A DNA stretch of 40,322 nt from a virus (Duplodnaviria > Heunggongvirae > Uroviricota > Caudoviricetes). Below are positions 21,001 through 24,000 of this stretch, one piece after another. The stretch covers positions 1 to 40,322 of IMG/VR virus record IMGVR_UViG_2529293138_000012; one strand, given 5' to 3'. Position 1 is the stretch's first letter. Each line of letters begins with the position of its first letter. The position numbers were made by a program.

Positions 21001-24000
21001 GGTAGTTAACCTGCGCGGTTATCCTGTCGATTCCACTTCGGAGACGGTAATAATTGAGTTCAGCATCTGCTGTAAGTCCTGGGCTTTCTCCATCGCCCAT
21101 GCTGCTGGCTCCGGTCGTTGACTTTGCACAGGTGGCGGCGACTTGCAGGCGCTTACGCCCAGCAGAAACATCAGCACGGAGACTTTCGATAGTCGCGTTA
21201 GCATCAGCAAGCTCCTTTGTGTATCTGGCGTCGAGTTCTGCTACATCACGTTGACGCTTCTGTATGTCAGCGATGATGTACGTGGCTTTATCGCGCTGTT
21301 CTTTATAGGTAATGGCGTTATCACGGTAATGATTAACAGCCCATGACAGGCAGACGATGATGCAGATAACCAGAGCATAAATAATCGCGGTAACTCTGCT
21401 CACTGATCTATCCCCCAACAGGCTAATGCGCTTTCCTGGTCACGACGAATAACCTGTCCGTAGCAGTTATTTGAACGTATACGGCAATCGCGCCCACCAT
21501 CTTTTATCCACCAGCGAATCGCCTCGCATGCCCCCTTACGATCACCGGCATTCAGCTGCTTATAAAACGTCGACGGGAAACACTTACCGGGGCCAATGTT
21601 ATAGGGACAAAATGACGCTATACCCGCTTTCTGTGGTTCGGTCAGTGGTACTTTAATATTGCGTTCCACCCATGCCAGTGCCTTATCACGTTCAATGGCA
21701 TTAACCTGGCCACATTTTTCCTTCGTCAGTTTCATGCCCTGAATAACAGGTTTACCATCCACCATCGTTGCTCCCCGGCAGATGGTCCATATGCCGGAAC
21801 CATCACGGTATGCAGTGGTGTGGTTACCTTCTTTTTCGTCCAGAAACTGGTCAAGTATTTGAGGAGCAGACGCGCCTGCACCAATCAGCGCTAGTACAGT
21901 AGCCGACAGGCCGTATCTGATTTTTGCGTTCATGTATATTTATCAGGATTTATAGTCTTCTGAATCCCGGCTATGTTAGATCTGTCATCAGAGGCTCATA
22001 ACACATCTGATGCACATACCCCAGGGCTACACGCCGGATGACCAAAGATGAAGCTTTGAAAATGAATGATAAAGACAACTTACACAGAGTATTTATGCTT
22101 GTACTGAACGAAAAAGTTAAGTCAGAATTTCTGATACTCCTCAAGGACAATTATAATGTAACGAAATCCATTATCGCTGAACCATATGGCCGTCTCTCGA
22201 CAGAAACGCTGGATATTATAAAAACTGCATTGACACCATTAATACTTCAACAACTGAAACATAATATAAACGAATGGATTAATGAAGAATTCAGTTCCTG
22301 TAATTGCTTATGGGACAAAAGTCATGCCTGCCTCCAAAAAAAACGACTCTTAAATAAATTATCACTCAAGTTCAGATAAAGTTAAAAATTTGTTTCTGTA
22401 CATTAAAGAAGAGCATCTCCGATAAAACCAGATCAACTGGTAATTTTCTGAACAAGAGAATAGTTCGCTGAGTCATTCCCTCCGTGCAGCCTTACGCCTG
22501 TCTTCTTTAATCTTGAAATACAGATTCGTCAGATAAGTCAGAAAGCCCAGTGCCAGACTTCCCAGTACACCAATTGCCGCCCACTGTGACGGACTGACCT
22601 GATCAAGCCACTGTAAAAACCAGTAGCCAGCACTGCCTACGGAGGTGCCATAGGAAATACCAGTTGAAATCTTATCTATCGAACTCACAACCTCACCTCT
22701 GCAAAAATATGGGACTTGGTTTCAGATATAAAATTTCTCCTGATATAAAAACAAATTAATATATTAAGAAAAATCATACGTAATTTAAACAATATAACTT
22801 AACATACAGACATATACATAAAAATACCAAGCAACATCAATGACAAACAGCCAACAAGAAAAATAATTATTTTCACAAAATAATACAGTAGAAATAAACA
22901 ATATAAAAAGTTACCAATCCATATAATAAAAACACAACAAAAATTAAAAATCATCAATTAACAACAATACTGGTAATGCCATTACACTAAGAAGTTTCTT
23001 TTTCAAATCAGACAATTTTTTGTTAGAAAGGCCATTTATTATTGAATGACATGTGATTATACTAATTACTCTCAAATCAGTGGAACATTGTAATGGAGCA
23101 TATCTCCTCCATGGTTCTTCTCTCCATGCCTGATGTCCATCAGGAAAACCAGCAAGACGATAACCATCTTCATTAGGAGCTATATTCAAACCATGAAACA
23201 GATCACTTCTGTATGCTCTGTTTCTGACCATAGGAGTTTCAATAACTCCAAAGTTAACACGATACCAACCAATTATTTGAGAGAAAGGTATTCCACCAAG
23301 TGCAGCAACTTCATTTTCATATGGATGAGGACTGTAACGACCAAGAACACCATTAACATCAAACATGTTTGGTGCAGGTGAAATAACATATATATAATAC
23401 TCATTACTGCCACCAAACATATTTTGACCAATATTATGCGCCTCATTTAATGTAGTTGTAGTTGATACATATCCATCATCATATCTCGTATTGCCAGTAG
23501 GCATTCCCATAACATGATCGAATAGATTAATATTTATAGGCGTACCACGTTCATATGCATCATCCTGACCTCTTGGTAACAAACCATTAACTCTCCTAAG
23601 TTGATTTGGAGCTCTAGTATCAGCACGAAAAAGATCATTTGAATATGCGATATTGGATAATACAAAAGCTGATACAAGAAATAACTTAAATATATTAATA
23701 AGTAACACTCTACTTTTAAAACGTATTTTAAACATTATACAACACTCAAAAAGTCAATATGTTTTATCAATTACAACAGTAGTAATAGTACAGGCCTCCC
23801 TTCTGATCCCCATCTTAACACCGTATCCTAAAAAATATGCCTCATGTAATATTTTATTTATATTATTATCACCTGAACGAGCCCATTCAGAATATCCACA
23901 ATCACTTCCAATATTAGTCAATCCATCAAACATATAATAATATCTATTATTATCTGAATCCTGTGACCAGTCGGCTTTTATTGATTTAACAGTAACTACA

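Follow-up and report, generated by a model that had tools for sequence, protein, structure and literature searches.

A conserved phrog_1853 family gene lies opposite to the late operon between the holin and endolysin genes of a lambdoid prophage

The virus record IMGVR_UViG_2529293138_000012 was analyzed over a stretch of 40,322 nt (hereafter the window, to which all coordinates refer), which corresponds to a lambdoid prophage whose late genes are read from the minus strand. Between its holin gene S and its endolysin gene R, we found on the plus strand an open reading frame (ORF) that, judging from sequence comparison, is a genuine protein-coding gene under purifying selection. This accessory gene belongs to a family already catalogued but uncharacterised, phrog_1853, of which the window copy is a new and divergent member. 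Our preferred reading, to which we assign a probability of about 0.6, is that of an autonomous, moron-type accessory gene, which is expressed as long as the late operon stays silent and whose protein binds another macromolecule.

The initial annotation of this DNA had described an AT-rich insert of about 540 bp separating holin and endolysin and carrying an ORF of 113 aa on the opposite strand, and both were confirmed. The features concerned are the following:

22473..22688, minus strand: holin gene S, class II (phage 21 S-type), GTG start (PF04971, E=3.6e-35; the annotations of JNEC-KY180 and RM8082 likewise give a class II holin)
21934-22472: spacer between S and R, 539 bp, 35.6% G+C
22380..22472: the 93 bp of the spacer that separate the stop of the ORF from that of S, with a weak hairpin inside
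22038..22379, plus strand: longest ORF, 113 aa, ATG start
22062..22379, plus strand: conserved coding sequence, 105 aa plus stop
22038..22061, plus strand: in-frame upstream extension of eight codons
22336..22343, plus strand: run of eight A residues (A8) within the ORF, a frameshift hotspot
21934..22061: divergent intergenic region between R and the ORF, 128 bp, containing the translation-initiation region of R
21400..21933, minus strand: endolysin gene R, a phage lysozyme (PF00959, E=3.9e-24)

The ORF had also been described as convergent with the late operon, which holds for S but not for R, with which it is head-to-head.

Coding evidence and predicted product

The ORF product matched phrog_1853 with E=6.6e-35, residues 1-103 of 105 aligning on positions 57-158 of the 159-position profile, and all five aligned relatives matched the same profile (best E=3.4e-45). 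The conservation that the initial annotation had left to be established is present: start and stop codons are kept in the alignments, pairwise ratios of non-synonymous to synonymous substitution rates (dN/dS) range from 0.17 to 0.41, third-position changes are in excess and alleles differ by indels whose lengths are multiples of three. Of 101 ORF-bearing loci, 93 keep the frame intact at 100-110 aa, in 30 distinct alleles.

We weighed these data against the alternative that the frame is open by chance, in an intergenic region that has expanded and is AT-rich, which would fit the composition of the spacer and the absence of a Pfam match. A frame of at least 113 aa arose in 13 of 3000 dinucleotide-preserving shuffles of the spacer, a chance of ~0.4%; together with a confident fold prediction and, above all, the conservation of a family under purifying selection, which refutes it, this leaves a chance frame with a negligible probability.

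Relatives lack conservation over the first eight codons of the longest ORF and start at the ATG aligned to 22062. In Escherichia coli RM8082 codon 5 of the 113-aa frame, which lies within this extension, is changed from GAA to the stop codon TAA. The extension (22038-22061) is probably untranslated, and with a start at ATG 22062 the RM8082 stop would therefore be harmless. At the other end of the gene, a one-base deletion in the A8 run produces an altered 128-aa form in JNEC-KY180 and in the IMG/VR locus L023, the last 12 residues being changed in JNEC-KY180; proteins P0010, P0011 and P0017 show frameshifted C-termini at the same QQK position. Either a homopolymer sequencing error or genuine slippage could explain these frameshifts.

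The AlphaFold2 model of the product has five helices and a mean predicted local distance difference test score (pLDDT) of 89.5, and the protein is predicted to be a soluble five-helix bundle; no informative structural relative was found for this model. A charge split is shared by the whole family, the N-terminal 85 residues being acidic and the C-terminal 20 basic. Neither PF07041 (DUF1327/YdfR) nor any other Pfam family matched the window ORF or 13 family members at E up to 5.

Distribution of the gene

Searches for near-identical DNA suggested that the spacer was a unique insert. By megablast it was absent from 50,697 phage records, and of 5426 complete E. coli genomes just two had a near-identical copy. 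These are RM8082, from cattle in the USA, and JNEC-KY180, from a human in Japan, and both carry the same toxin gene beside S. This idea was overturned by a more sensitive blastn search, by which DNA ~70% identical to positions 21936-22379 was found in at least 652 of the 5426 genomes, always flanked by a class II holin and a lysozyme and with a hypothetical gene annotated there on the plus strand. One end of the homologous stretch is the start codon of R and the other coincides exactly with the stop codon of the ORF, while the 93-bp spacer at 22380-22472 lies outside it both in blastn and in the alignments, and has no homology to the relatives. Roughly one in eight complete E. coli genomes carry relatives in the lysis cassette.

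At the protein level, a first search with the 113-aa query returned near-identical proteins only, owing to its word index, and a profile was required; the profile search gave 28 relatives, from E. coli wherever the source names an organism. An exhaustive HMMER search over 1.8 billion cluster representatives returned only 23 matches, thus the family is narrow, and two scans of the GTDB species-representative genomes gave no relative. The nearest E. coli alleles are 56-66% identical in amino acid sequence, with the C-terminus and the stop conserved. We found no description of the gene in the literature retrieved on DUF1327/holin, phage 86 and Shiga toxin (Stx) phage lysis cassettes.

The closest subfamily, at 59-66% amino acid identity, is represented by WP_001063218.1 and WP_001063217.1 from prophages of Shiga toxin-producing E. 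coli (O111:H8, O178:H19) and by a 90-aa annotated form in M8. These proteins share with the window product the C-terminus RLFNKLSLKFR and the position beside R; the window allele differs in having 68-73% DNA identity to them and in lacking their consensus -10 and Shine-Dalgarno sequences. The first published member of phrog_1853 is orf6 of the Stx2-converting phage 86 (AB255436, BAF34038.1), which by tblastn is 47% identical over 95% of the protein (E=2e-20) and likewise sits at the S-R junction, read against the late operon. It differs from the window gene in having a convergent partner, orf5, of 268 aa (an N-terminal DUF1327/PF07041 domain followed by a phrog_1085 C-terminal domain); this partner gene alone was matched by PF07041. 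The gene was also placed by tblastn in the Stx2a phage 12E129.

Wherever loci are long enough to tell, the phrog_1853-type gene is on the strand opposite to the adjoining lysis genes, with the exception of L014-L016. In these, the 109-aa protein P0009 is encoded at positions 4001-4330, outside a lysis cassette and near a PerC-family gene and chromosomal metabolic genes; they are probably a prophage remnant in which P0009 is the sole intact survivor.

Origin of the insert

In lambdoid phages a moron, in the sense of Juhala and Hendrix, is an autonomous accessory unit. The initial annotation had proposed that the spacer ORF came from a second, independent moron insertion. Its moron-like character is upheld by orientation, by composition and by separability from the toxin. 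The ORF separates two genes that adjoin each other in related phages (essD/rrrD of DLP12), and its G+C content (33%) is unlike that of R (50%) and S (48%), a contrast repeated in all relatives (0.38-0.41 for the gene against 0.52-0.56). In L023, a block comprising the 5' part of R, the ORF and S is 96% identical to that of the window and stands beside a pertussis-like toxin operon instead of the LT-II-like one, therefore the block is separable from the toxin cargo.

An independent insertion, on the other hand, is contradicted by the homologues in E. coli genomes and by phage 86 orf6. Compared with other alleles, dS is at least 1 and synonymous sites are saturated; no flanking insertion scars or repeats were found, only short repeats consistent with chance. 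The spacer gene is an old module that occurs widely and is continuous with the 5' end of R; as an insertion it is neither recent nor private, and its allele in the window is rare and divergent. For the window itself the outcome is mostly a correction: an inherited, widespread module in a rare allele rather than a fresh insertion.

One of the lambda-type morons to compare with it is bor (borD in DLP12), also small, of atypical composition, opposite to the late operon and beside the lysis genes. Nevertheless, bor is a lipoprotein gene located after Rz, while the window gene is predicted to encode a soluble helical protein and lies between S and R.

The S-R junction and the phrog_1085 partner

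In many relatives the ORF is accompanied by a second gene. S, the opposite-strand ORF and R are annotated in that order, with or without the partner after S, in O111:H8, O178:H19, M8, GF60, Stx2 phage 86 and Stx2a phage 12E129; the partner is present in Stx2 phage 86, O111:H8, O178:H19 and others. The partner belongs to phrog_1085 (its NCBI name is often "YdfR family") and lies on the late-operon strand, its 3' end abutting or overlapping the 3' end of the ORF by 8-33 nt. It has a conserved C-terminal domain of ~110 aa preceded by a coiled-coil or by a DUF1327 N-terminal domain. Its AlphaFold2 model (pLDDT 49.7) was too poor for a fold search, and a PDB sequence search was empty. In distant enterobacterial relatives the convergent pair is found upstream of the holin, the holins being of families PF16080 and PF05106. 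The ORF is accordingly head-to-head with the next lysis gene, R in the window and the holin in the distant relatives, and tail-to-tail with S or with the phrog_1085 partner.

The window has the opposite-strand gene only. Its arrangement, Rz-R-ORF-S without a partner, is the commonest among the ORF loci (~59/101, many of them from one near-identical lineage), and the partner is found without the ORF in ~49 of 80 partner loci, with its stop 42 nt from the R start. Some orphan lineages retain debris of the partner: in L011-L013 this is a remnant of 65 aa, whereas M8 and L011 have 5' remnants of DUF1327. A possible counterpart in the window is this feature:

22372..22476, minus strand: ORF of 34 codons, its ATG overlapping the S stop (ATGA) and its stop overlapping the ORF stop by 8 nt

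The stop and frame of this short ORF coincide with those of the O111:H8 partner genes, and in a MAFFT alignment its FRKLPVD resembles the FKKAPVD of the partner. Comparison with the partner was not significant by tblastn, and a permissive DNA alignment was uninformative; near-identical copies of the 34-codon ORF differ by non-synonymous changes. It is possibly the remnant of an internally deleted partner, and is probably not a gene.

These arrangements raise the possibility of a two-gene module in which the phrog_1853 gene would serve its convergent phrog_1085 neighbor as antidote, immunity factor or regulator, the window carrying an antidote orphaned by deletion of the partner. The convergent, overlapping pair is kept in the distant enterobacterial relatives and relocates as a unit upstream of the holin; partner remnants persist in the orphan lineages, the 34-codon ORF has the stop and frame of the partner, and the conserved C-terminal domain of the partner is modelled at low confidence by itself. 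We nevertheless regard this role as improbable, as both genes are often solitary, they are convergent rather than co-transcribed, the window remnant has no statistical support and PADLOC found no defence or toxin-antitoxin match (a single match of 0.031 was seen, in one relative). For the same reasons, namely convergent genes, each often alone, and negative PADLOC results, the loci do not resemble a type II toxin-antitoxin or a known defence system.

The initial annotation considered S and R to be normally adjacent. This is true of the simplest cassette checked, that of the K-12 prophage DLP12, in which essD and rrrD (S and R) overlap by 1 nt; the junction is, however, commonly occupied, as by ydfR between essQ and rrrQ in the K-12 prophage Qin. 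In the cassettes L123 and L160 the partner is present and the ORF is not. L120 carries at 2516-2866 (minus strand of that locus) an unrelated ORF of 116 aa, opposite to the late operon and immediately upstream of R, which suggests that, on its R-proximal side, the junction receives opposite-strand genes in general. The site as a whole is a mosaic, since it includes the DLP12 overlap, the Qin ydfR, the unrelated L120 ORF and the different partner and ORF combinations.

As ydfR (DUF1327) occupies the S-R junction of a phage 21-type cassette and its domain heads some partner genes, we compared it with the window ORF, from which it differs in being on the late-operon strand and unrelated in sequence. 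YdfR has been reported to bind RNase E at its N-terminal catalytic domain, and possibly RNA (PMC13232886). Nothing connects that activity to the window ORF, and YdfR is not encoded in the window.

Expression signals and possible roles

According to our preferred reading, a sigma-70 promoter lying in the 128 bp that separate R from the ORF would drive plus-strand transcription of the gene, counter to the Q-dependent late transcript. Expression would hence fall in the time when the late operon is off, either in the lysogen or at an early stage of infection, and convergent late transcription would end it. The small soluble protein would then bind another macromolecule; in paired loci the target would most plausibly be the conserved C-terminal domain of the partner, or the partner's own target, and the window copy would be an orphan with weakened expression signals. 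The candidate signals in the window are:

21949-21954 and 21972-21977, plus strand: candidate sigma-70 promoter for the ORF, -35 TTTATA, 17-nt spacer, -10 TATGTT
22050-22053, plus strand: weak Shine-Dalgarno GAAG
22427-22441: terminator-like hairpin, 5-bp stem, then AATTTTCT

The other members of the subfamily carry, ~70 nt upstream of their ATG, a perfect TATAAT with a -35 matching at 3-4 of 6 positions, and they have a GAGG Shine-Dalgarno; the TATAAT and GAGG count among the moron-like features of the family. Several observations weigh against our interpretation. The window lineage has TGTCAT in place of TATAAT and GAAG in place of GAGG; the TTTATA-17-TATGTT candidate, found by our own scan, matches 8 of 12 consensus positions, and a separate promoter scan of the window gave no plus-strand site. 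No clear terminator was found 3' of the ORF (folding z-score -1.3), and the A8 frameshift affects two of five near-identical copies. Searches of Pfam, NCBIfam, PADLOC and PDB sequences gave no functional clue for the ORF, and the frequent solitary state of both genes weakens the proposed interaction with the partner.

The same mutated TATAAT and GAGG, the frameshifted copies in JNEC-KY180 and L023, the loss of the partner and the rarity of the allele could mean that the window copy is a decaying, unexpressed relic, retained merely through its position between two essential lysis genes. The ORF is intact, however, and its branch carries 18 synonymous and 21 non-synonymous changes, similar to other lineages; nine positions that do not vary among the other five lineages are replaced in the window allele, mostly by conservative hydrophobic swaps. 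Considering also the alternative promoter candidate, we find decay an unlikely account of the window copy.

A role at the level of RNA or transcription has to be considered as well, in which antisense RNA or interference into S or the partner damps leaky expression of the holin and late genes in the lysogen, or tunes lysis timing, the protein being secondary. It would suit the position of the gene, which in cassettes of three holin families is inside or beside the lysis genes and faces the next of them head-to-head, the 3' end that abuts or overlaps the convergent gene in the relatives, and the lack of a convincing terminator between the ORF stop and S in the window. Against it, selection acts on the protein, as seen in the dN/dS values, the third-position excess, the in-frame indels and the conserved stop; the window promoter is weak, folding of both flanks was no better than that of shuffled sequences, and Rfam gave no match at the ORF or the spacer. 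We hold such a role to be of low probability.

A further structure was noticed in the phage 86-type genes and distant relatives, which have a conserved hairpin (GCCAGTG...CACTGGC) with a T-run ~60-95 nt upstream of the ORF start and directly after a -10-like box (L007 ~3400-3440, L008, L009 ~4905-4940, L018 ~1330-1365). It resembles an attenuator or a 5' stem-loop, and is a difference between the phage 86-type genes and the window, being absent from the latter and from its closest subfamily. The window also has a 26-nt inverted repeat (22387-22412 and 22501-22526, 77% complementary, 88 nt apart), one arm of which is in the spacer beyond the ORF and the other in the 3' coding end of S. In the late transcript the arms could pair across the stop codon of S, or the repeat may be due to chance.

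Rather more tentatively than the moron-type reading, the phrog_1853 gene, alone or with its phrog_1085 partner, might be an unrecognised component of the lysis cassette: for example, a factor of new fold, made in the lysogen or early in infection, that controls the late-operon or lysis genes or protects the lysogen from superinfecting phages or premature lysis. This proposal, which we find doubtful, would account for the retention of the gene at the head of R or S across three holin families, Shiga toxin phages included. Any effect of the gene on the expression of late genes, on when lysis occurs or on superinfection would matter for the release of toxin from Shiga toxin and LT-like prophages. 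A conserved small protein with a confidently predicted fold and no informative match is encoded in Stx2-converting phages too, where its transcription opposes the late transcript for toxin and lysis.

The lysis cassette and the neighboring toxin genes

The remaining genes of the region are:

20966..21418: Rz (PF03245, E=1.1e-34)
21019..21210: Rz1-like ORF embedded in Rz
Beyond Rz, on the low-coordinate side of the lysis genes: KilA-N gene
22944-23735, minus strand: LT-II-like toxin A gene

From high to low coordinates the order is toxin A, S, spacer, R, Rz with the Rz1-like ORF, and KilA-N. The N-terminus of R, read from the sequence as MNAKIRYGLSATVLALIGAGASAP, is rich in Gly and Ala, and this segment appears typical of SAR (signal-arrest-release) endolysins. 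With its holin of the S21 family, a lysozyme with a SAR-like N-terminus, and Rz with embedded Rz1, the cassette is of the phage 21 type.

On the other side of S, the gene for a secreted protein of 110 aa (23754-24086, minus strand) precedes that of a 263-aa A subunit of the CT/LT family (PF01375, E=1.7e-102; best PDB match LT-IIb A, E=9e-94). A sub-threshold Rfam match to STAXI RNA inside toxin A (22976-23111, minus strand; 25.5 bits against a gathering threshold of 40.5, E=0.014) is most likely due to chance. No B gene follows A, its place being taken by a 255-bp spacer of 23% G+C; in this the cargo differs from LT2d, which is reported with genes for both A and B subunits (PMC6988837). Just two of the 5426 complete E. 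coli genomes show the toxin arrangement of the window. A protein of 115 aa that shares 49% identity with the 110-aa one (E=6e-31) heads the toxin operon of L023 (6131-7667 of that locus), a pertussis-like (PF02917) operon in the order B then A at the same Q-S site. The toxin cargo of the window looks like a hybrid.

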